Assembly: GCF_004376175.1 (NCBI RefSeq)
Contig: NZ_SNUY01000046.1
Coordinates: 1 to 32,000, forward strand
Length of the DNA: 32,000 nucleotides
Source of the DNA: Halalkalibacterium halodurans
Lineage (GTDB): Bacteria > Bacillota > Bacilli > Bacillales > Bacillaceae_D
Direction: 5' to 3'
Shown here: positions 1 through 13,224 of the stretch, piece by piece
Numbering within the stretch: position 1 is the first letter of the stretch
Layout of the letters: each line of letters starts with the position of its first letter
Made by a program: the position numbers and the translations under genes
The notes under the pieces: model-generated
Seen by the model: only the letters and a program-made list of their open reading frames with translations
Databases searched by the model: none
Told to the model about the DNA's origin: nothing

Positions 1-58
1 CCCCGCGGGGGGCCTGCATAAAAGGAATGCCATAACCTACATTTTTATTCTGCCATAA

Positions 59-453
59 ACACTGTTACGCGAATTGAAGAAGTTTAAATTAAAGCAAAAC
101 GAGCTAATTTTAAGTGACAAGCGGTTTCAAAAAAATGAAGAAGGAATCATGTTTCAAAACTACTTAGGTAATCTACTGTACGTGAATCGATAATCAAATA
201 CTGCAAAAAAGCAGGTGTAGAATATAAAGGTACTCACGGCTTCCGACATACACATGCCGTTTTGCTTCTTGAGTCAGGAGCAAGCATTAAATTCGTATCT
301 AAGCGGTTGGGACACAAAACAATTAAAACTACTGCTGACACTTACCTAGATATTACGGAGAAAATAGAAGAAGACGAACTCAAAAAGTTCGCCTCCTACA
401 CTAGCAGAAAATCTGAATCGGCACAAAATCGGCACGTGCCAGATTCTTTATAA
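59..453 (+). pseudogene. Tyrosine recombinase (phage-type integrase) C-terminal remnant, frameshifted and lacking its N-terminal half
   Basis: Frame 2 (59-193) reads TLLRELKKFKLKQNELILSDKRFQKNEEGIMFQNYLGNLLYVNR*. Frame 1 (172-453) continues ...KYCKKAGVEYKGTHGFRHTHAVLLLESGASIKFVSKRLGHKTIKTTADTYLD.... The HxxR box, second His and catalytic Tyr are present, but a frameshift near 180-190 is needed and stops lie upstream at 56-58. Confidence 0.8.
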
Positions 454-456
454 TTC

Positions 457-497
457 AAACCCCGGCATAACCCCCATTATACCAAGGTTTTTTGTTT
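457..497. terminator. Candidate bidirectional hairpin between the integrase remnant and sufB
   Basis: AAACCCCGG...CCAAGGTTT stem followed by TTTTTTGTTT on the + strand. In the minus-strand RNA the two mismatches become G-U pairs. The loop is 16 nt, which is long. Confidence 0.35.
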
Positions 498-498
498 A

Positions 499-1896
499 TT
501 ATCCAATCGACCCTTCCATTTCGAACTTGATTAGACGGTTCATTTCAACCGCGTATTCCATTGGAAGTTCTTTTGTGAATGGCTCAATGAAGCCCATGAC
601 GATCATTTCCGTTGCTTCTTCTTCAGAGATTCCGCGACTCATCAAGTAGAAGAGCTGATCTTCCGATACTTTAGAAACGGTCGCTTCATGCTCCAACGTA
701 ATGTCGTTGTTTAAAATTTCGTTGTACGGGATCGTATCTGAAGTGGATTCGTTATCCATGATCAGCGTATCGCACTCAATTTTTGATTTCGATCCTTGTG
801 ATTTACGGCCGAAGTGGGCAATTCCTCGGTAAGATACTTTTCCGCCCTGCTTGGAAATGGACTTCGACACGATCGTTGAGGAACAGTTTGGCGCCAAGTG
901 AAGCACTTTCGCTCCTGCGTCTTGGTGCTGCCCTTTTCCTGCGATCGCGATGGAAAGAATCGTCCCTTTCGCCCCTTCCCCTTTCATAATGACCGCTGGG
1001 TACTTCATCGTTAGCTTGGAGCCGATGTTTCCATCGATCCATTCCATTGTCGCGTTTTCGTATGCGACCGCACGCTTGGTTACGAGATTATACACGTTCG
1101 GCGCCCAGTTTTGGATCGTCGTATAACGGCAGTACGCATCCTTTTTGACAATGATTTCAACAACCGCACTATGCAAGGAGTTTGTTGTGTACACAGGAGC
1201 TGTACAGCCTTCTACATAGTGGACAGAGCTGTCTTCATCGGCAATGATAAGCGTACGCTCGAATTGTCCCATGTTTTCTGAGTTAATACGGAAGTACGCT
1301 TGCAATGGCGTCTCCGTTTTTACGCCTTTTGGTACGTAAATGAACGATCCCCCAGACCATACAGCCGAGTTTAACGCGGCAAATTTGTTGTCGGTTGGTG
1401 GAATGATCGTACCGAAGTATTCTTTAAAAATATCTTCGTTTTCCTTCAGAGCAGAGTCTGTATCTTTGAAGATAATTCCTAGCTCTTCAAGATCCTCTTT
1501 CATGTTGTGGTAAACCACTTCAGATTCGTACTGAGCGGAAACCCCTGCAAGATATTTTTGCTCTGCTTCTGGAATTCCAAGCTTATCGAATGTGTTTTTG
1601 ATTTCTTCAGGTACTTCATCCCAAGAACGCTCAGATTTTTCAGATGGCTTAACGTAATACGTGATGTCGTCAAAATCAAGCTCTGTTAAGTCTCCGCCCC
1701 ATTGTGGCATTGGCATTTTGTAAAATTGCTCAAGCGACTTTAAGCGGAAATCGAGCATCCATTGTGGCTCCTGTTTCATGCGGGAGATTTCCTCTACGAT
1801 TTCCCGAGTTAATCCGCGCTTCGAACGGAAAATCGACACGTCCCGATCAGAAAACCCATATTTGTATTCGCCGATTTCAGGCATTTTCTTTGCCAT
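499..1896 (-). CDS. sufB: Fe-S cluster assembly protein SufB
   Basis: The ORF translation from [25 protein letters not shown]... is collinear with Bacillus SufB. ATG at 1896 follows GGAGGG (1903-1908). It is the last gene of the suf cluster. Confidence 0.97.
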
Positions 1897-1933
1897 GGGA
1901 AAAACCCTCCTTTTATTCATTACACAAGGACCA

Positions 1934-4891
<2,958 letters not shown>

Positions 4892-4938
4892 ACTAACCCA
4901 CCCTTTTCGTTGATTCTGTTTACTATAAACGGATTGCT

Positions 4939-5730
4939 TTACGCTTCTTGACCTTCACTTACACGCTCATCTTCAATTCCAAGCTCTTCCTTAATCCAGT
5001 CATAACCTTCTGCTTCAAGACGTTGCGCAAGCTCAGGGCCACCTGATTTTACGATCCGTCCTTGCATCATGACGTGAACTTTGTCTGGAGTGATGTAGTT
5101 CAAGAGACGCTGATAGTGGGTAATGATGAGACAGCCAAATTCAGATCCACGCATGGCGTTAACACCTTGAGAAACGACTTTCAATGCATCGATATCAAGA
5201 CCAGAGTCGATTTCGTCAAGAATCGCAATTTTCGGCTCCAGCATCATGAGTTGAAGAATTTCATTACGTTTCTTTTCACCGCCAGAGAATCCTTCGTTTA
5301 AGTAACGATGAGCAAATGATTCGTCCATATCAAGTAGATCCATCTTTTCATCAAGCTGACGAATAAACTTCATTAATGAAATTTCATCGCCTTCTTCACG
5401 CTGTGCATTAATGGCAGAACGTAAAAAGTCTGAGTTTGTCACCCCGCTAATTTCACTTGGGTACTGCATGGCTAAGAACATACCTGCTTTCGCACGCTCG
5501 TCCACTTCCATTTCAAGCACGTCTTCGCCGTTTAACGTGACGCTTCCGCTTGTGATTTCATATTTAGGGTGTCCCATAATCGCCGAAGCGAGGGTTGATT
5601 TACCTGTTCCGTTTGGCCCCATGATAGCATGAATTTCGCCACCATTTACTTCAAGGCTAAAATCCTTTAAAATTTCTTTTCCTTCAATCGTAACATGAAG
5701 ATTTTCGATTTTTAAACTAGGTGCTGACAT
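4939..5730 (-). CDS. sufC: Fe-S cluster assembly ATPase SufC
   Basis: Walker A GPNGTGKST, signature FSGGEKKR, Walker B ILDEIDSGLD. The preferred start MSAPSLKIENL at 5730 is preceded by GGAGGT (5737-5742). Confidence 0.96.
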   Translation of the reverse strand: MSAPSLKIENLHVTIEGKEILKDFSLEVNGGEIHAIMGPNGTGKSTLASAIMGHPKYEITSGSVTLNGEDVLEMEVDERAKAGMFLAMQYPSEISGVTNSDFLRSAINAQREEGDEISLMKFIRQLDEKMDLLDMDESFAHRYLNEGFSGGEKKRNEILQLMMLEPKIAILDEIDSGLDIDALKVVSQGVNAMRGSEFGCLIITHYQRLLNYITPDKVHVMMQGRIVKSGGPELAQRLEAEGYDWIKEELGIEDERVSEGQEA

Positions 5731-5915: not shown

Positions 5916-6482
5916 TTACAATCGAATGCACAATCGATCAATAACTTTTCTAGGTGAGTCATTTAACTCACGAATAAAAGCTTGCACATTTCTTCGAATC
6001 TCTTTAACAGAGGAATAAAAAAGGTTATTAATTACGTCTGATTTGAGCCATTTCCATAACCCTTCAATGAGATTTAACTCAGGGCTGTAAGGTGGTAAAA
6101 AAACCAATTCTAAACGATGTTGGTGGTTACGCAAAAAAGGTTCAATCAGCTTCGCATGATGAATACGGGCATTATCTAACACCATGACAATCTTACCGGT
6201 CGGATAGTGTTTCAATACCTTTTGAAGAAAACGAAGAAACGCTTCGGCATCGTATCGTTCTTCTTCTACACAAAGCACATCTCCCGTTTCATAATTAAGT
6301 GTACCGATGAGTTTGACACCCTGGTGCTTTCCATAAGTCGGAATGATTCGTTGCTTGCCTTTTAAAAACCATGTGTATTGAAGAGCTTGGTAATCCCGAA
6401 TCATCGACTCATCTTGAAAGAGAAGATGGTCAATCTCCTCATTTAAGAGTTTTTTTATAGGCAGGGAACGTCTCTTCCACAA
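5916..6482 (-). CDS. IS630-family transposase, DDE catalytic part (orfB, no independent start)
   Basis: Contains LFQDES..., VLDNARIHH and PPYSPELNLIEGLW, the DD(34)E-type motifs of the IS630/Tc1 superfamily. It lies in the +1 frame relative to orfA and overlaps it across the A7 run (T7 on the + strand, 6450-6456). Confidence 0.85.
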   Translation of the reverse strand: MWKRRSLPIKKLLNEEIDHLLFQDESMIRDYQALQYTWFLKGKQRIIPTYGKHQGVKLIGTLNYETGDVLCVEEERYDAEAFLRFLQKVLKHYPTGKIVMVLDNARIHHAKLIEPFLRNHQHRLELVFLPPYSPELNLIEGLWKWLKSDVINNLFYSSVKEIRRNVQAFIRELNDSPRKVIDRLCIRL

Positions 6483-6960
6483 ACTCTTTTTGTTTCAACG
6501 GGTCAGCTTTTGCCAGCGTATAAGTCGGTTTGGTATAACTAAGGCCTAAATCGTGTAAAAGTCGAGAGACACCACGAAGAGTATACGGTTGGTTCCATTT
6601 TTTCTCGATAAATGAAGCAATGATCTTTAACGTCCAATTATACTTAGCTGGGAAGCCAACATCTACGGGAAGTTTGGTCGCAATCACTTGAGCCAATTCC
6701 TGTTCTTGTTCGGGTGTTAATTTGCGTGGCGCTCCAGGTGATTGTCCCATGGTTAAGCCATCTAGTCCCTTTTCTTCGTAGGCATTCACATAGTTATAGA
6801 TAGTTTTTTCGGAACGCCCAATCATGGTTGTGATTTCTTTTTTAGAATAGCCTTGTAAATAAAAGTAAATCGCTTGATAACGTTCATACATTCGTTTATC
6901 TTTGGTCGTTTTCATCGCTGTAAGCAAGGTTTCGATTTCATGTTGACGTGAATGGGTCAT
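6439..6960 (-). CDS. IS630-family transposase, N-terminal HTH part (orfA)
   Basis: 173 aa with winged-helix/HTH-like segments (KEITTMIGRSEKTIYNYV; RGVSRLLHDLGLSY). Ends just after an A7 run shared with orfB. Confidence 0.85.
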   Translation of the reverse strand: MTHSRQHEIETLLTAMKTTKDKRMYERYQAIYFYLQGYSKKEITTMIGRSEKTIYNYVNAYEEKGLDGLTMGQSPGAPRKLTPEQEQELAQVIATKLPVDVGFPAKYNWTLKIIASFIEKKWNQPYTLRGVSRLLHDLGLSYTKPTYTLAKADPLKQKEFVEETFPAYKKTLK

Positions 6961-7687: not shown

Positions 7688-8131
7688 TTAATGCTTCATA
7701 TTTTGGTTTTGACCTTGCTTTTGGTTTTGACCGTTTTGACTGTCTTGTTGATCTTGTTGACCTTGTTCTCCATTATTTTGTCCGAACTCATTCATGGCTT
7801 CTTGAACGAGCGTGACGGCCTGGCTCATGGCGGCCCCTCCACCAAAAGCAGCAGTCACTCCAATCGCTTCCAGAATCTCTTCTTCTGAGCAATCTTGGTC
7901 CATGCATCCTTTTGTATGATAAATGATGCAATATTCATCTTGGGCAAAAACGCTAACACCTAGGGCGATCAACTGTTTCTGTTTTTGCGAAAGCTCCCCT
8001 TTTGCGAAGCAAGCTTCAGTAAACGCATTGTACTTTTCTGCAATCTCCGGCATCTTCTGTTGAAAGGTGCCAAGCCCTTCTTTATAATCCATTAGTGCCA
8101 TTTCCATCGGGTTCATTTGTTGTTGATCCAT
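7688..8131 (-). CDS. Carboxymuconolactone decarboxylase / AhpD-like family protein (yurZ-like) with a Q/N-rich tail
   Basis: CMD-type core ...[23 protein letters not shown]... (the E-x-C-x3-H pattern). ATG at 8131 ([13 protein letters not shown]) follows AAGGAGG (8139-8145). It occupies the same position as B. subtilis yurZ, between sufC and metQ. Confidence 0.8.
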
Positions 8132-8276
8132 CGTACAACCTCCTTTGCTTTTCAACGTCTTTAGTATGAGATCGAACTACATAATTCATTCGAATAATGA
8201 TTCAAAAGCATCCTTGCAAAACAAGAAAAAAACCTTTATCGTGAAAAAAGGTGAAAGAAATGATGGGAACAGCATA

Positions 8277-8313
8277 GGAAAAGACGACCGAAATGGGCGT
8301 TCGACCGTCTTTT
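8277..8313 (-). terminator. Intrinsic terminator of the AgrD-like peptide gene
   Basis: In the minus-strand RNA, GACGGUCGAA / UUCGGUCGUC forms a 10-bp stem with two G-U pairs, followed by UUUUCC. On the + strand the same positions are A-C mismatches, so the hairpin is specific to the minus strand. Confidence 0.75.
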
Positions 8314-8320
8314 CTTTACA

Positions 8321-8443
8321 TTATTTTTGTTTCTTTAAGCTATTAGGAATCTTTGGCGCATATATGAGTGGGCTAGACGCATTGACAAACGCTTTTGAGA
8401 TTCCAAGAGTCGCTTTTGAAATGACTTTAGCTGTTCTCTTCAT
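8321..8443 (-). CDS. agrD: AgrD-like autoinducing-peptide precursor (40 aa, below the ORF-track cutoff)
   Basis: Hand translation gives MKRTAKVISKATLGISKAFVNASSPLIYAPKIPNSLKKQK*. GGAGGTG lies 7 nt upstream of the ATG (8443), and a terminator lies 8 nt past the stop. The layout is a basic amphipathic N-terminal part, a short core, then a Pro-containing charged tail (KIPNSL). That Pro sits 10 residues after Ser23, matching the Cys-to-Pro spacing in S. aureus AgrD as I recall it. Confidence 0.6.
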   Translation of the reverse strand: MKRTAKVISKATLGISKAFVNASSPLIYAPKIPNSLKKQK

Positions 8444-8589
8444 TCGTTTCACCTCCCTCTATAAATTAAGATTTTCTTCAAAATGCTTTAAATATCTTAG
8501 AATTTCATTGCCTTTTGTTATCCTCTGATTAGATGAAACTTGCATTTCATGCATTTGTTGGAAATATGAATGCCATCCTGGTAGAGATC

Positions 8590-8842
8590 ATGCTTTCTCG
8601 CTTTAAAAATATGATCGCACCAGTGGATCTCCACATTTCTCTGGGGGTTACCCTCCCATTTCTCTCAGGGTCTTTGCCCGCACATTCCTTCGTCCAACCT
8701 AACCAGAGGTGGAGGCCTGTAAAAGCTCCTTTGCAGGGTCTATGCCCGAATGGTGAAATTAATCAACAGGCTTCTCCGTGCTTCGCTTTTCAAGGATCTG
8801 CACACCTAGATATTTAAAGATATTTGTGTTTCTTCAACATGA
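8590..8842 (-). ncRNA. Candidate IS110/IS1111-type bridge (seek) RNA in the 3' non-coding arm
   Basis: A roughly 250-nt non-coding stretch just 3' of the transposase stop, GC-richer by eye than its flanks. It holds several local hairpins (for example CCTGCAAAGGAGCTTTTACAGG) and an internal direct repeat AGAGAAATGGGAG / AGAGAAATGTGGAG. The + strand ORFs here have no RBS. Confidence 0.3.
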
Positions 8843-10126
8843 CTAAGCAGCATTCTGTATTTGTTGCAAGCGGATGTGTCCGAGACATTTTTCTCCATTG
8901 TAAGACACACGCTTGTGTCCTAAGCTAAATAACACGCGAATCAACTTACAGCACAACGCGATCATGGATTGTTGTTTTTTCAACGGATTCTCGGAGCGTG
9001 TCGTTAAGTACTCATGCATTTGCTTGAACTCCCGATTCTTCGCCACCATGGGGCGTATCGCTGCATACAACAGGGATCTCAGTTTGGGGCGTCCCCGCTT
9101 GGTAATGCGGGTTTGACCTCTGAACTTGCCTGAGGTATTTTCTCGCAGATTGAATCCTGCCAGTTTTTGAACCTGTCGTGGGTGCGTGTAGTTGGACAGA
9201 TCGCCAACCTCAGCCAGGAAGCCAGCCACTGTCACTAGTCCCACGCCTGGAATACTCATCATGTAGGGCACAGCTGGAATCTGCTCTAGTAATGCTTCTA
9301 CATCTTGCATGAGCTGTTCCATTTGTCCACACAAACACTGGTATTGTTCCATCAAGCTTTGGAGTTCTTGCCTAGCCATTGACAGACCTTCCGTAAGACC
9401 AACAGAACGCTTGGCGGCCGCCACAAGCGCATTGGCTCGCTTGATCCCTATGGCTCGTTTCACTTCTTGCTTCCAGTGTCTTAGGATCTTTTCCGCACCC
9501 AGATTGATGATTTCTTGCGGGAGAGGAAACGCCTCTAGCGTCATCAGTGCAGCCTTTCCTTCCCAAATCTTAAACACCTCATGAAATTCAGGGAAAAAGC
9601 GATCCAGCCAGTTGAGAATACGCCCCCGAACGCGTTGTAAGTCTTCTTGTAGACGGTCTCGCAGGTTCATCCCATTACGTAATTCAGCATATATGCCAGT
9701 GGGGACTTGGGGTTCAGAGTACCGTCCGTCTTTGACCAATTGAGCGATGACTCGGGCATCCTTTACATCATTTTTGGTGGGCGAATTGTCATCTAATTCC
9801 TTGCTCTTCTTCACATGCATCGGATTGACGACAACATACTTAATCCCTTCATGGCGCAGAAACTGGGCAAATGCCATCCAGTAATGCCCTGTGGGCTCAA
9901 AACCTACAATGACATCCGGTTTGGCATGTTCTCGCATGAGGCTCTTCATCCACAAACGAAATCGTTGAAATCCGGCTCTGCTGTTTTCAATGTTCATTGG
10001 CTTGCCAAATTCAATTCCTCTGGCATCTTGAGCTCTAGCCACATGGTTCTCCTTGGCGATATCCACGCCAATAACGAGTGTTGATTCGGTGATTTGCTTG
10101 ATTTTGTGATTTTGGTTATACTTCAT
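8843..10126 (-). CDS. IS110-family (DEDD) transposase/recombinase
   Basis: 427 aa. N-terminal RuvC-like DEDD motifs are VIGVDIAKENH, GFEPTGHYW and NDVKDARVIA. The C-terminal Transposase_20-like region reads IPGVGLVTVAGFLAEVGD...SGKFRGQTRITKRGRPKLR. AAGGAGG precedes the ATG. Confidence 0.93.
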   Translation of the reverse strand: MKYNQNHKIKQITESTLVIGVDIAKENHVARAQDARGIEFGKPMNIENSRAGFQRFRLWMKSLMREHAKPDVIVGFEPTGHYWMAFAQFLRHEGIKYVVVNPMHVKKSKELDDNSPTKNDVKDARVIAQLVKDGRYSEPQVPTGIYAELRNGMNLRDRLQEDLQRVRGRILNWLDRFFPEFHEVFKIWEGKAALMTLEAFPLPQEIINLGAEKILRHWKQEVKRAIGIKRANALVAAAKRSVGLTEGLSMARQELQSLMEQYQCLCGQMEQLMQDVEALLEQIPAVPYMMSIPGVGLVTVAGFLAEVGDLSNYTHPRQVQKLAGFNLRENTSGKFRGQTRITKRGRPKLRSLLYAAIRPMVAKNREFKQMHEYLTTRSENPLKKQQSMIALCCKLIRVLFSLGHKRVSYNGEKCLGHIRLQQIQNAA

Positions 10127-10222
10127 CTTGAGTCCTCCTTCGTACTAATTAAGGATCAGTAGCTACTGATACCTCGTATCGTACAGGAGGGCTCTTTCTG
10201 TTTCAAACCTCAAATTCTTTCA

Positions 10223-10801
10223 TTACAGGAATGCTCCTTTCAAGATGAACCGATTGAGCTGCCTCGTGACCTTTAGGCCAATAGGCGTAAGGAGCACCCC
10301 TTGTAATAGAACCCCGAGAACGAGGCCTTGAGCCGACATAAACATTGCAAGAATGATAAAAAGAACGATGAGGATGTAAGCTATCCGTTTCTTCCGCCGC
10401 TCCCAATGCTCTGTATGTACTACTTGATGAGCCTCATAGTATGGAGCGTATTTCCAAATCAACAGTCCCCCGCTAATTCCATAAAGAATCCAAGCATAGT
10501 TGTTTGCAAACGGAACCCAGAAAATTGCCGTGATGAACAGAACGGACAGCAAAGTACAGCCAATAGAATGATCAAGGTGAGCACCTCCCGTCAACACCCT
10601 CATGAACGTGAAGGATAGTGCGATTTGGAGAAACAGCCAAATCTCTCCGTGGAGAAGGCCAACCGCTATGACGAGCAATAAAGTAAAGAGATAGTGGAGA
10701 ATGATCGTGAATCCAAACGTTAGAACCTCAACCGATTCTGTTTCTTCTGCATTCAATGCTTTCACTTGATGTGCCAACGTTAAAGCAAGACGTTCAAGCA
10801 T
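10223..10801 (-). CDS. agrB: AgrB-family accessory gene regulator protein B (AgrD-processing membrane peptidase)
   Basis: A polytopic membrane protein of about 192 aa with the motif MRVLTGGAHLDHSIGCTLLS. His and Cys are 7 residues apart, as for the catalytic H77/C84 of S. aureus AgrB. ATG at 10801 follows a G-rich SD. Confidence 0.85.
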   Translation of the reverse strand: MLERLALTLAHQVKALNAEETESVEVLTFGFTIILHYLFTLLLVIAVGLLHGEIWLFLQIALSFTFMRVLTGGAHLDHSIGCTLLSVLFITAIFWVPFANNYAWILYGISGGLLIWKYAPYYEAHQVVHTEHWERRKKRIAYILIVLFIILAMFMSAQGLVLGVLLQGVLLTPIGLKVTRQLNRFILKGAFL

Positions 10802-10812
10802 CAAACCCCCCC

Positions 10813-12087
10813 CTATTTTCTTATAAAGCGGATGCTACATTCTAGCGGGCGAATTTGTGAATCAACTTTCGCGTTATTTTGCTGAAAGTACATAAGATCA
10901 TCGACAATCTTAAGTGTTGTCACATCTTGCTCTGAAAGCTCTAGGTTGCTCGATATGCGATACTCTAACGTACTATCTGTCATGTTAATCTGCAGCCTGA
11001 CAAACAAATCGGACATACCTGTTCGGTACAATGCAACGAACACCTCGTCCAATATCCGACTTAAATAACGAATTTGCCACAAAGACGTTGGGCGAACGTG
11101 CTCAAGAGTCGCTGACACTTTAAACTCGACACCTAATAACCGTGATAGCTTTTTCTTATTGATGAGAAAGGCATACATCACTTCATCTTCAGATTTGAAC
11201 AAATGATAGCTCTCATCTTTCACACTAAAACTAGGTAGTTTTTTTATCGCGACTTTCTTTTCTACATACTCACGAATTAGTGGCGCCGACTCTTTTTCAC
11301 AAAGCTTTAAAATCGCATTGGAATGGATGCTGTATTCATTTTGAATCGTTTCGACAATACTTGATAGTTGCTGCTCTTGATCTAGATAAAATTTCTTTGC
11401 CTCCATCATCCGCTTCGCTTGAAAGATGGAGTGAAGAACGTAGTACGTAGATAATACAAGGAAAAGCAATACGATAATGAAGAGAACAAATAAATGTTTG
11501 TTTAACACTGCACTTGTCGTCATCACATAAGATGCGAAGCAAATGAACAGAAACATCATAAACGCACTTACAAATATAACGCGTTTTTCCTTCGTCGAAA
11601 GCAAATCTCCTTCAATATGTCCGCGAAATTCGTTAAGCTGATAGCTCCCTCGGTAAATGCCGTATGAGGCTGTTGTTACAAGGAGGAACGTACCGCTTTG
11701 AATCAGCAACGTTACATCGGTATAAGACAGCAAGACGTCCCAATAACTGTAAGAGGACATGGCGGTAATCGCTTCGACAATGATTAATTGGGTAAAGATA
11801 TAAAATCCATATCCACTGCTCGTCACGACTAACGACTCTAATGAATTAAATCGAAATAACCATCTGACAAGGATAAACAAAACGGTCATTTGAATGAAAA
11901 TCACAATCGGCAAGTGCAAATGGGGGACCATTCGTAACACAAAAATCGATAAAAGACTCAATAACGTACCAATCGCTACAATTGATAAACGATAGCGGCG
12001 GAACGTATAACCAAATAATAGAACGGGAAACGATAAGAGGGCGCTCCATTCCAAAATGGATATTAGGAAGGTTAAAATGTGATACAT
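10813..12087 (-). CDS. AgrC-like 7-TM receptor protein with a degenerate (pseudo)kinase domain
   Basis: 424 aa with about 7 predicted TM helices in residues 1-215. A DHp-like helix follows, retaining one His (EYSIHSNAILKL versus AgrC RHDYVNIL). A C-terminal GHKL-like fold reads LSRILDEVFVAL where AgrC has ILDNAIEA (Asn replaced by Glu), and no GxGxG G-box is present. GGGGAG SD lies 8 nt before the ATG. Confidence 0.7.
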   Translation of the reverse strand: MYHILTFLISILEWSALLSFPVLLFGYTFRRYRLSIVAIGTLLSLLSIFVLRMVPHLHLPIVIFIQMTVLFILVRWLFRFNSLESLVVTSSGYGFYIFTQLIIVEAITAMSSYSYWDVLLSYTDVTLLIQSGTFLLVTTASYGIYRGSYQLNEFRGHIEGDLLSTKEKRVIFVSAFMMFLFICFASYVMTTSAVLNKHLFVLFIIVLLFLVLSTYYVLHSIFQAKRMMEAKKFYLDQEQQLSSIVETIQNEYSIHSNAILKLCEKESAPLIREYVEKKVAIKKLPSFSVKDESYHLFKSEDEVMYAFLINKKKLSRLLGVEFKVSATLEHVRPTSLWQIRYLSRILDEVFVALYRTGMSDLFVRLQINMTDSTLEYRISSNLELSEQDVTTLKIVDDLMYFQQNNAKVDSQIRPLECSIRFIRK

Positions 12088-12117: not shown

Positions 12118-12915
12118 TTAAATCGTCATGTTTTTCCCTTTTGGAATGGTTAATGTGACAACCACACCTCTTTTTGGATGGTTCTTGATCTCAAGCGTCC
12201 CCTCCATGGCTTCTATAATGGTTTTGCATATGGGCAATCCTAAGCCTGTTCCCTCATCCTTCGTCGTAAAAAAAGGATAAAAAATGTTCTCTAATTGATC
12301 CTCAGCAATTCCTGGTCCATCGTCATGAATGACAAGAATCACTGCGTCCTGATCATTGGAAAGCTTGATGGAAATGGTTCCTTCTTCCTCTATTGCTTCA
12401 ACAGCGTTTTTAATAAGATTAATAAGTACTTGCTCAAAGCGGGTTACATTACCTGAAATATATAAGCCTTCTGCCAAATCTGTGCGAAACCGGATCTCTT
12501 TCTTGTCTTGCTTCATTTTCTGAATGAGAATAACCTTTTCAATGCTACGCTTGACATCAATCAATGACAAGTTTTCCTCGTCAAGATGGGCTTTGGCGAA
12601 CGTTAATAACTCTTGAATGAGCGCCTCCATACGAATAGCTTCATCTTTAATGATAGACGTATATTGGGCAATCGTGGGATCAGAGCGAATCGTTTCATTT
12701 TGCTCAAGGTATTGAGTAAAACCGATAATCGAGGTTAGAGGATTTCTTATTTCATGAGCAAAAAATGCCGCCATTTTTCCGATAGCTGCATGATAATTCT
12801 CATTTCCATCCTTATAATCATTTCCGATCTCACTTAGACGCTCTTGATATGATTTCTTTTTTTCTATTGGCTTTGTCTTTCTTTGCAGCCAGCTTTTAAA
12901 AAATGGACGGTTCAT
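12118..12915 (-). CDS. Soluble, sensor-less histidine kinase (HisKA + HATPase_c; sporulation-kinase-like H-box)
   Basis: H-box FAHEIRNPLTSIIGF, N-box LINLIKNAVEAI, G1 DDGPGI and G2 GTGLGLPICK are all intact. Only about 50 residues precede the H-box, with no TM segment. The preferred start MNRPFF at 12915 has GGGAG 7 nt upstream; the longer TTG start at 13002 has no SD. Confidence 0.85.
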   Translation of the reverse strand: MNRPFFKSWLQRKTKPIEKKKSYQERLSEIGNDYKDGNENYHAAIGKMAAFFAHEIRNPLTSIIGFTQYLEQNETIRSDPTIAQYTSIIKDEAIRMEALIQELLTFAKAHLDEENLSLIDVKRSIEKVILIQKMKQDKKEIRFRTDLAEGLYISGNVTRFEQVLINLIKNAVEAIEEEGTISIKLSNDQDAVILVIHDDGPGIAEDQLENIFYPFFTTKDEGTGLGLPICKTIIEAMEGTLEIKNHPKRGVVVTLTIPKGKNMTI

Positions 12916-13224
12916 GATGATAACACTCCCACTAATCGCACGAAAAAATTCTGCCCTTTCGATATTGTTACAATTTCGACGCTTTATTGTAAGTTCCTTC
13001 AAATATTTTCATTCTTTTCTGACATAATTTTTCCCAGTTTTCGAATATTCCTGAATCGAACTGAGCGCCTCCCATAACGTAAGAAAAACCCCTGCTTGAG
13101 AAGTAACAGAGATAAATAAATCACGGTGTACTACAAAAAGGTGATGACTTATTACTGCCTCTCGGAAAGTTGCCTCGCTTTTGAGGCCATGCACCAGACA
13201 GCTACGCCTCCCTTTCTTCATTTA

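Follow-up and report, generated by a model that had tools for sequence, protein, structure and literature searches.

Among the peptide quorum-sensing circuits of Gram-positive bacteria, the agr system is the textbook case, and its receptor AgrC has, to our knowledge, always been described as a self-contained receptor kinase. A locus in Halalkalibacterium (Bacillus) halodurans raises the question of how such a circuit could signal if its AgrC-like receptor is catalytically dead. We analyzed positions 1-32,000 of contig NZ_SNUY01000046.1 (the window, to which all coordinates refer). In this stretch, an intact open reading frame (ORF) on the minus strand (10813-12087; 424 codons plus stop) encodes a protein whose sequence matches hypothetical protein BH3476 of this species at 100% identity. 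BH3476 is made from one operon together with the genes for BH3477, AgrB, and AgrD, of which BH3477 is a soluble HisKA histidine kinase that, by sequence, has no sensor. Window features given below with coordinates are on the minus strand unless stated otherwise. A receptor of the BH3476 family is found beside this small kinase, nearly always, in about 30-40 species of Bacillaceae, and the arrangement suggests a previously undescribed "split" quorum-sensing receptor, in which a pseudokinase descended from AgrC would sense the peptide and the separate kinase would provide the catalysis.

BH3476 is a homologue of AgrC-type receptor histidine kinases

Searches with the BH3476 sequence against Pfam, NCBIfam, and the PDB sequences returned no match. 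The same was true of a profile built from 14 family members and of each single member, and HATPase models did not match any of these 14 proteins even at E ≤ 10. When 1.84 billion representatives were searched exhaustively with the BH3476 family profile, we recovered the family itself, comprising about 24 clusters, and, at E values of 1e-9 to 1e-4, proteins of 440-470 residues with SPOB_a plus HATPase_c_5 or HATPase_c domains, one of which was fused to AgrB. When the BH3476 family alignment (A1) was aligned using hhalign to an alignment of 16 SPOB_a plus HATPase_c_5 kinases (A3), the match had a probability of 99.8% and an E value of 9.2e-28 over 368 columns. This match spans residues 4-381, i.e., the entire membrane domain, the DHp domain, and the first half of the CA domain, and the alignable region ends exactly ahead of the G1 box. 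The kinases in A3 bridge BH3476 to AgrC: they match the NCBIfam model for staphylococcal AgrC (NF046015) nearly full length, including the transmembrane (TM) region, and, where genomic context is available, their genes have the order kinase-agrB-agrD. The hhalign comparison to the single Staphylococcus aureus AgrC sequence, which we checked to be identical to the PDB chains, was insignificant (probability 0.3%), but its register proved to be the one that the significant profile alignments gave.

An AlphaFold2 model calculated on the family alignment (predicted local distance difference test score, 79.7) has seven TM helices, in line with the original prediction of a 7-TM sensor. They comprise residues 2-24, 29-53, 59-78, 82-110, 124-147, 165-190, and 197 onward, the last continuing into a long signaling helix (residues 197-264) that is followed by a short second helix, a disordered loop (residues 279-291), and then an alpha/beta domain. 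Using Foldseek to compare this model to the PDB, we obtained the cytoplasmic module of S. aureus AgrC (6e95/6e52) as the best match with an E value of 7.6e-6, followed by DesK (CA domain 3ehg) and, further down, the CA domains of PhoQ and AgrC (4bxi); Spo0B and ChpT were absent from the top 50 matches. BH3476 accordingly begins with a seven-TM sensor domain (residues 1-222; 11422-12087) that is homologous to the sensors of agr-linked AgrC-like kinases (hhalign columns 4-220). A signaling linker and DHp-like hairpin follow (residues 223-280; 11248-11421), carrying the family-specific motif EAKKFYLDQEQQ; DELLYAFLINKRK marks another helix of the protein. The C-terminal part is a degenerate CA-like domain of the Bergerat fold (residues 292-424; 10816-11214), as assigned from Foldseek, the alignments, and column counts.

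These results show that BH3476 is a true homologue and descendant of AgrC-type quorum-sensing receptor histidine kinases. The similarity to AgrC that can be spotted by eye is real, yet it is demonstrable only with profiles and structure because direct sequence methods find nothing.

The representative search also returned a protein of 656 residues (P0038) that combines an AgrC-like kinase (SPOB_a plus HATPase_c) and a complete AgrB domain in one ORF, which may represent a genuine fusion or a stop codon that was missed.

BH3476 has lost the catalytic elements of the kinase

The phospho-acceptor His of the RHDF/Y motif (H239 in AgrC) aligns with Asn250 (11338-11340) of BH3476 in the hhalign alignment to AgrC, in an hmmsearch comparison to six kinases, and in the hhalign alignment to the 16-kinase profile, and the adjacent E251-Y252 match the D-F/Y of the kinase H-box. 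For this and all following column counts, we used a set of 31 nonredundant full-length family members with intact ORFs. Position 250 is K, E, R, Q, N, A, T, or D in these proteins and His in none of them. The His that the original prediction regarded as a retained phospho-acceptor is His255 (11323-11325), and that assignment was an error of register: this residue, at position +5, corresponds to the second His of RHDFxNH, which is conserved but not the acceptor in real kinases. In 4 of the 31 members, His255 is replaced by R, K, or P, and 2 of these 4 have no His at all in the DHp-like region.

In the N-box, ILD-E348 (Glu348, 11044-11046; LD-E in place of LD-N) lies opposite LLD-N in the MAFFT as well as the hhalign alignment. 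Column 348 contains Asp in 21, Glu in 9, and Tyr in 1 of the family members and Asn in none. The region preceding the N-box aligns with AgrC in both programs as had been proposed. From the "VxN" strand to the "GL.IVK" helix, BH3476 has only 10 residues (LELSEQDVTT), as opposed to about 27 residues containing G1, F, STK, and G2 in real kinases, and the ATP lid is thus ~17 residues shorter. The G1 and G2 boxes are absent, and G319 is the only conserved Gly among residues 296-424 across the family. Because MAFFT misplaced the lid gap in the C-terminal tail, we aligned the last helix by eye (LKIVDDLMYFQQNNAKV opposite GLxIVKxIVEKYxGxIxV), and this pairing is to be read as tentative. Apart from the acceptor His, the original prediction, in which the receptor is AgrC-like and its ATP-binding domain dead, agrees with the profile alignments and the structure model: the Asn of the N-box is replaced, the G-box is gone, neither an Asn nor a glycine-rich lid is placed at the expected positions, and the canonical N, G1, and G2 motifs are not kept in the family.

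Judging from the alignments, BH3476 has lost every catalytic element, i.e., the acceptor His (Asn250), the Asn that coordinates Mg-ATP (Glu348), and the lid with G1, F, and G2. A phosphorelay through BH3476 is unlikely because the acceptor position is never a His, and because His255 derives from a non-acceptor position and is dispensable in some members. We favor allosteric or scaffold control of a partner kinase.

The cytoplasmic module is conserved across Bacillaceae

Relatives of BH3476 share 30-43% identity and were found in Halalkalibacter, Caldalkalibacillus, Salipaludibacillus, Anaerobacillus, Niallia, Lederbergia, and several Bacillus isolates. The mean pairwise identity is 39.5% in the sensor, 48.8% in the linker and DHp-like region, 12% in the loop, and 38.8% in the pseudo-CA domain. 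The linker and DHp-like region is, thus, the most conserved part of the protein, and the motif EAKKFYLDQEQQ as well as D301, N310, K311, and P414 are invariant or nearly so across the family. Because the identities of the DHp-like region and the pseudo-CA domain equal or exceed that of the sensor, the cytoplasmic module is, on sequence grounds, constrained at least as much as the sensor, and the family is conserved under selection.

A soluble kinase is encoded next to BH3476

The gene for BH3477 (12118-12915; 265 residues from ATG) ends 30 nt upstream of BH3476, which in turn is followed by an 8-nt gap and agrB. BH3477 is intact and contains HisKA (6e-16) and HATPase_c (1.6e-27) domains according to Pfam, as expected from the original prediction of a stand-alone kinase at this site. 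The mechanically called ORF runs to a TTG at 13002, and orthologues of 257-273 residues support the ATG start. In 19 orthologues of BH3477, the H, N, G1 (DxGxG), F, and G2 (GxGxG) boxes are conserved. The N-terminal ~45 residues consist of a short basic/aromatic motif (FFKSWLQRKTK; FNKKWFRKK in an orthologue) and a variable linker. BH3477 is thus predicted to be fully soluble and to have no input or sensor domain.

Among 21 loci with sequence available upstream of the pseudokinase gene, a kinase orthologue is encoded immediately upstream in 20, including 4 loci that lack agrBD. These orthologues form a discrete group of about 43 clusters from the same taxa with 47-61% identity and 248-284 residues, after which identity drops to 39%. 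In reciprocal look-ups starting from the kinases of Paenalkalicoccus and Desertibacillus, we recovered the kinase, a protein of 428/432 residues without any domain match, AgrB, and a 40-residue ORF. agrB and agrD are located downstream of the pseudokinase gene in about 16 of the 21 loci as well as in loci L029 and L030, and cassettes from different Bacillaceae genera keep the order kinase, pseudokinase, agrB, agrD. Because the kinase lies immediately upstream in nearly all loci and the reciprocal look-ups give the same cassette, gene context supports that the adjoining stand-alone kinase is functionally tied to BH3476, as the original prediction suggested.

A kinase orthologue named for Niallia sp. 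01092, the organism of locus L019, is present in the protein database, seemingly on another contig.

Among PDB sequences, BH3477 matches the KinB core (3d36; 2.3e-35) best, with ThkA (3a0r) scoring practically the same. We treat a possible link of the kinase to sporulation as a lead and not as a finding, as the KinB match is all that points to it. When the regions upstream of the kinase gene were compared in 21 loci for a shared cis-element, the ribosome-binding site was the only common element, and perfect Spo0A boxes (TGTCGAA) were present in 4 of the 21, too few to claim control by Spo0A. Upstream of the kinase gene in L029 and L030, we noticed two perfect TGTCGAA heptamers each.

The operon encodes AgrB and a conserved, Cys-free AgrD

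agrB (10223-10804) encodes a protein of 193 residues that matches Pfam AgrB (PF04647, 4.5e-28). The His/Cys pair of GGAHLDHSxxC is conserved, and H76, H79, and C83 are invariant in the alignment of AgrB orthologues. We take these positions to be catalytic on the assumption that H77 and C84 are the catalytic residues of S. aureus AgrB.

agrD (8321-8443) encodes a precursor of the autoinducing peptide of 40 residues, MKRTAKVISKATLGISKAFVNASSPLIYAPKIPNSLKKQK, which scores 28.6 bits against NCBIfam AgrD (TIGR04223; curated cutoff, 19). In 16 loci, AgrD has the consensus FV-x-ASSP-[LFAG]-x-[HYN]-x-PK[IL]P-x-SL[KR][KV], which contains no Cys. The conservation of this Cys-free sequence points to a Ser-lactone pheromone with very little divergence in specificity. 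The active peptide of Listeria AgrD is cyclo-CFMFV (PMC4916163). For the peptide described here, we predict, by analogy with the Listeria precursor, cleavage before [HY]-A-P-K-I-P, which would yield a five-residue Ser-lactone ring of S-S-P-L-I that carries a short N-terminal tail. In the Listeria precursor, the cyclo-CFMFV segment is presumably followed by YEPKSP.

Unlike the hypervariable staphylococcal peptides, AgrD is nearly invariant between genera (FV-x-ASSP-x-x-H-x-PKIPESLKK), as seen in the window, at 7851-7973 of locus L001, and in 14 further loci.

A DNA alignment to uninterrupted loci revealed that ~1.78 kb with an IS110 transposase has inserted at the overlap of agrB and agrD in this strain. 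Bacillus solitudinis, Caldalkalibacillus uzonensis, and Paenalkalicoccus suaedae are examples of species whose cassette is intact. This IS110-family insertion extends from 8453 to 10233, with ends that are approximate to a few bases, and its transposase (8843-10126) matches DEDD_Tnp_IS110 and Transposase_20 in Pfam. AgrB consequently ends in KGAFL-stop as opposed to KGGE..NS-stop, the last ~10 codons having been replaced by AFL-stop. The displaced remnant of agrB (GGETNEENS-stop) is still readable just upstream of agrD, which keeps its ribosome-binding site and terminator and is cut off from the operon promoter. The probable intrinsic terminator behind agrD (8268-8312), read from the sequence, has the stem AAAAGACGGTCGAA / TTCGGTCGTCTTTT followed by a T-run; a terminator scan of this region flagged only its plus-strand version, at 8295-8310.

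A model for signaling by BH3476 and BH3477

The reading that we prefer, and that we consider somewhat probable, is that BH3476, although a pseudokinase, senses the peptide and controls its partner kinase through contact between the two proteins, which would form a split receptor. AgrB would process AgrD to a secreted cyclic peptide, which would bind the 7-TM domain of BH3476. The resulting conformational change would pass down the conserved linker and DHp-like helix (EAKKFYLDQEQQ...), and the cytoplasmic module of the pseudokinase, in direct contact with the soluble kinase bound to it, would either stimulate or silence autophosphorylation of this partner. The kinase would then phosphorylate a response regulator encoded elsewhere. 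This model builds on the homology, the catalytic loss, the conservation under selection, and the gene linkage that we observe.

Several points weigh against the model. We infer peptide binding, the contact between pseudokinase and kinase, the direction of regulation, and the downstream regulator. No ORF with a REC domain was found within ±5 kb of any locus in phmmer searches with Spo0F, a screen of moderate sensitivity. Locus L019 (Niallia sp. 01092) has the pseudokinase and agrBD and no adjacent kinase (tblastn of the upstream region, 1-5000, was empty). His255 is kept in 27 of the 31 family members, which leaves some room for a role in phosphotransfer. In a sister degenerate clade (P0031), the receptor is encoded beside a LytTR response regulator and lacks a neighboring kinase; degenerate AgrC-like proteins can, thus, evidently work without a co-encoded kinase. 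Finally, peptide production may be impaired in this strain because the IS110 element separates agrD from the operon promoter.

The conservation of His255 is also a reason to consider that BH3476 is a membrane-bound phosphotransferase of the Spo0B/ChpT type. The kinase would phosphorylate an intermediate or His255 itself, and BH3476 would pass the phosphate to a regulator under control of the peptide. The fold, with a DHp-like hairpin and a lid-less CA-like domain, is the design of Spo0B and ChpT as judged from their established structures, the AlphaFold2 model, and Foldseek. We nevertheless regard this explanation as improbable: the canonical acceptor position is never a His, at least two of the four members with R, K, or P in place of His255 (L004 and L008) still belong to a full kinase-agrB-agrD cassette, two members have no His in the entire DHp-like region, transfer from His to His without an intervening receiver is not normal phosphorelay chemistry, and neither Spo0B nor ChpT is among the top 50 Foldseek matches. 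The same residue would have to be autophosphorylated if BH3476 were a cryptic active kinase with a noncanonical mode of ATP binding, in which Glu/Asp348 ligates the metal. An acidic residue, present at this position in 30 of the 31 members, could in principle ligate Mg2+, but neither the ATP lid nor any Gly box is left, HATPase models do not match any of the 14 members searched, and His255 is not invariant, all of which makes this very unlikely. The loss of all catalytic motifs, together with the insertion element in the cassette of this strain, could alternatively mean that BH3476 is a decaying AgrC relic without function. That view can hardly be reconciled with 31 nonredundant intact ORFs at 30-43% identity, with invariant cytoplasmic residues, and with a DHp-like region whose conservation exceeds that of the sensor, and we regard it as the most improbable explanation. 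The relic and the cryptic kinase were rejected on the grounds of conservation and motifs.

Gene context bears on the two other explanations. BH3476 might be an anti-regulator that works independently of the kinase: it would bind the peptide and sequester or release, at the membrane, an unlinked transcription factor, e.g., of the LytTR type, in the manner of HdrM/BrsM-type membrane inhibitors, and the kinase would serve another pathway. Two groups of proteins fit such a scheme. One comprises remote relatives of the sensor domain, TM-only proteins of 221 residues adjoining agrBD and a receiver-less LytTR protein, and the other is the degenerate clade that has a LytTR response regulator but no kinase as a neighbor. 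We found no LytTR or REC gene near the loci of the BH3476 family; moreover, the kinase is the most constant neighbor, is kept even where agrBD is missing, and has no other possible input domain, and we give this explanation little weight. Because its gene lies immediately upstream of agrB in most loci (8-nt gap), BH3476 could also be an accessory protein that acts with AgrB in maturation or export of the peptide or in immunity and not in sensing. However, four loci keep the kinase and the pseudokinase without agrBD, homology to the sensor of receptor kinases extends over the entire TM domain, and the conserved histidine kinase-like cytoplasmic module has no obvious role in export. An accessory function, therefore, seems highly unlikely.

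Gating of BH3477 by BH3476 could also be viewed in a wider frame, which we put forward tentatively and consider rather doubtful at present. The 7-TM sensor of AgrC might be a portable module that evolution has repeatedly freed from the kinase it came with. As part of BH3476 and its relatives, it would allosterically gate a dedicated soluble kinase whose catalytic core is most similar, among solved structures, to KinB. The result would be a three-component quorum-sensing receptor that possibly feeds information on cell density directly into the sporulation phosphorelay of alkaliphilic Bacillaceae. Sister designs would employ this sensor with no phosphorylation chemistry of their own, in one case as a degenerate receptor together with AgrA and in another as a TM-only protein beside a LytTR protein that has no receiver.

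We came across such proteins during the searches. A second degenerate AgrC-like clade (L025, 5001-7662; L026, 5001-6939) comprises proteins of 403-415 residues with an H-box (INRDF/ITKDF) that lacks the His. These proteins have no Pfam match, the lid is deleted, and they are encoded with AgrB and AgrD; L025 also has a REC-LytTR regulator, and a kinase is not adjacent. TM-only AgrC-like sensors of about 220 residues make up ~50 clusters (P0037-P0099). One of them, P0037, is encoded on a metagenome contig (locus L028, 372-2221) together with AgrB, a 42-residue peptide, and a 173-residue LytTR protein without a receiver, an arrangement that would possibly constitute a phosphorylation-free agr circuit.

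Comparison with known systems

BH3476 shares with AgrC and with the SPOB_a plus HATPase_c_5 kinases the seven-TM sensor, the signaling helix, the DHp hairpin, and the C-terminal domain of the Bergerat fold. Like agrC, its gene adjoins agrB and agrD, and the C-B-D order is that of the nearest true kinases (locus L024). It departs from AgrC in lacking the acceptor His, the Asn of the N-box, and the G1/F/G2 lid, three features that define AgrC as a kinase. It also has no adjacent AgrA, is almost always found beside a separate soluble HisKA kinase, and is not recognized by any Pfam or NCBIfam model.

DivL of Caulobacter provides a precedent for a histidine kinase fold that acts without phosphotransfer chemistry, as it is thought to control the genuine kinase CckA by contact. 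In contrast to BH3476, DivL has a largely intact CA domain and a Tyr at the position of the His, senses a phosphorylated response regulator instead of an extracellular peptide, and does not share a two-gene module with the kinase it controls; its family and sensor are unrelated to those of BH3476. Spo0B and ChpT resemble BH3476 in the DHp-like hairpin, which is of the SPOB_a type, and in the lid-less CA-like domain, but they are soluble and have a His at the canonical RHD position, where the 7-TM protein BH3476 has Asn250. The logic of a catalytic kinase that has no input domain and relies on a co-encoded membrane protein is that of BceS with BceAB and LiaS with LiaF. There, in contrast to BH3476, the accessory sensor is not a quorum-sensing receptor kinase that has degenerated, and BH3477 differs from BceS and LiaS in being fully soluble by prediction.

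Looking for AgrC pseudokinases, degenerate AgrC proteins, or agrBD with an orphan kinase, we found no description of the BH3476 family in the searchable literature, whose reach does not include most subscription journals. If correct, agr would be wired in a new way in this conserved family, with a catalytically dead receptor paired to a kinase that has no sensor, and BH3476 would be among very few bacterial receptor pseudokinases. The pair would offer a two-protein system for studying how the histidine kinase fold signals in trans. BH3476 illustrates that AgrC-like receptors can escape domain-based annotation entirely, which bears on how the peptide is sensed at agrBD loci without a recognizable agrC. 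Such a locus has reportedly been found in Clostridioides difficile (agr1). Because the core of the peptide (ASSP-x-x-H) is unusually conserved across genera and free of Cys, a synthetic ligand should be easy to design.

Genomic surroundings of the operon

The cluster is flanked by a metNPQ-like transporter on one side and the suf operon on the other. Among the window ORFs scanned, we found no response regulator. Just downstream of agrD, a protein of the carboxymuconolactone decarboxylase family is encoded at 7688-8155; its C-terminal tail is unusual in being rich in Gln/Asn and of low complexity. A second mobile element at 5916-6960 consists of overlapping ORFs for a helix-turn-helix protein (6439-6960) and a DDE_3 endonuclease (5916-6482), and resembles an IS630-type transposase that a frameshift has divided.

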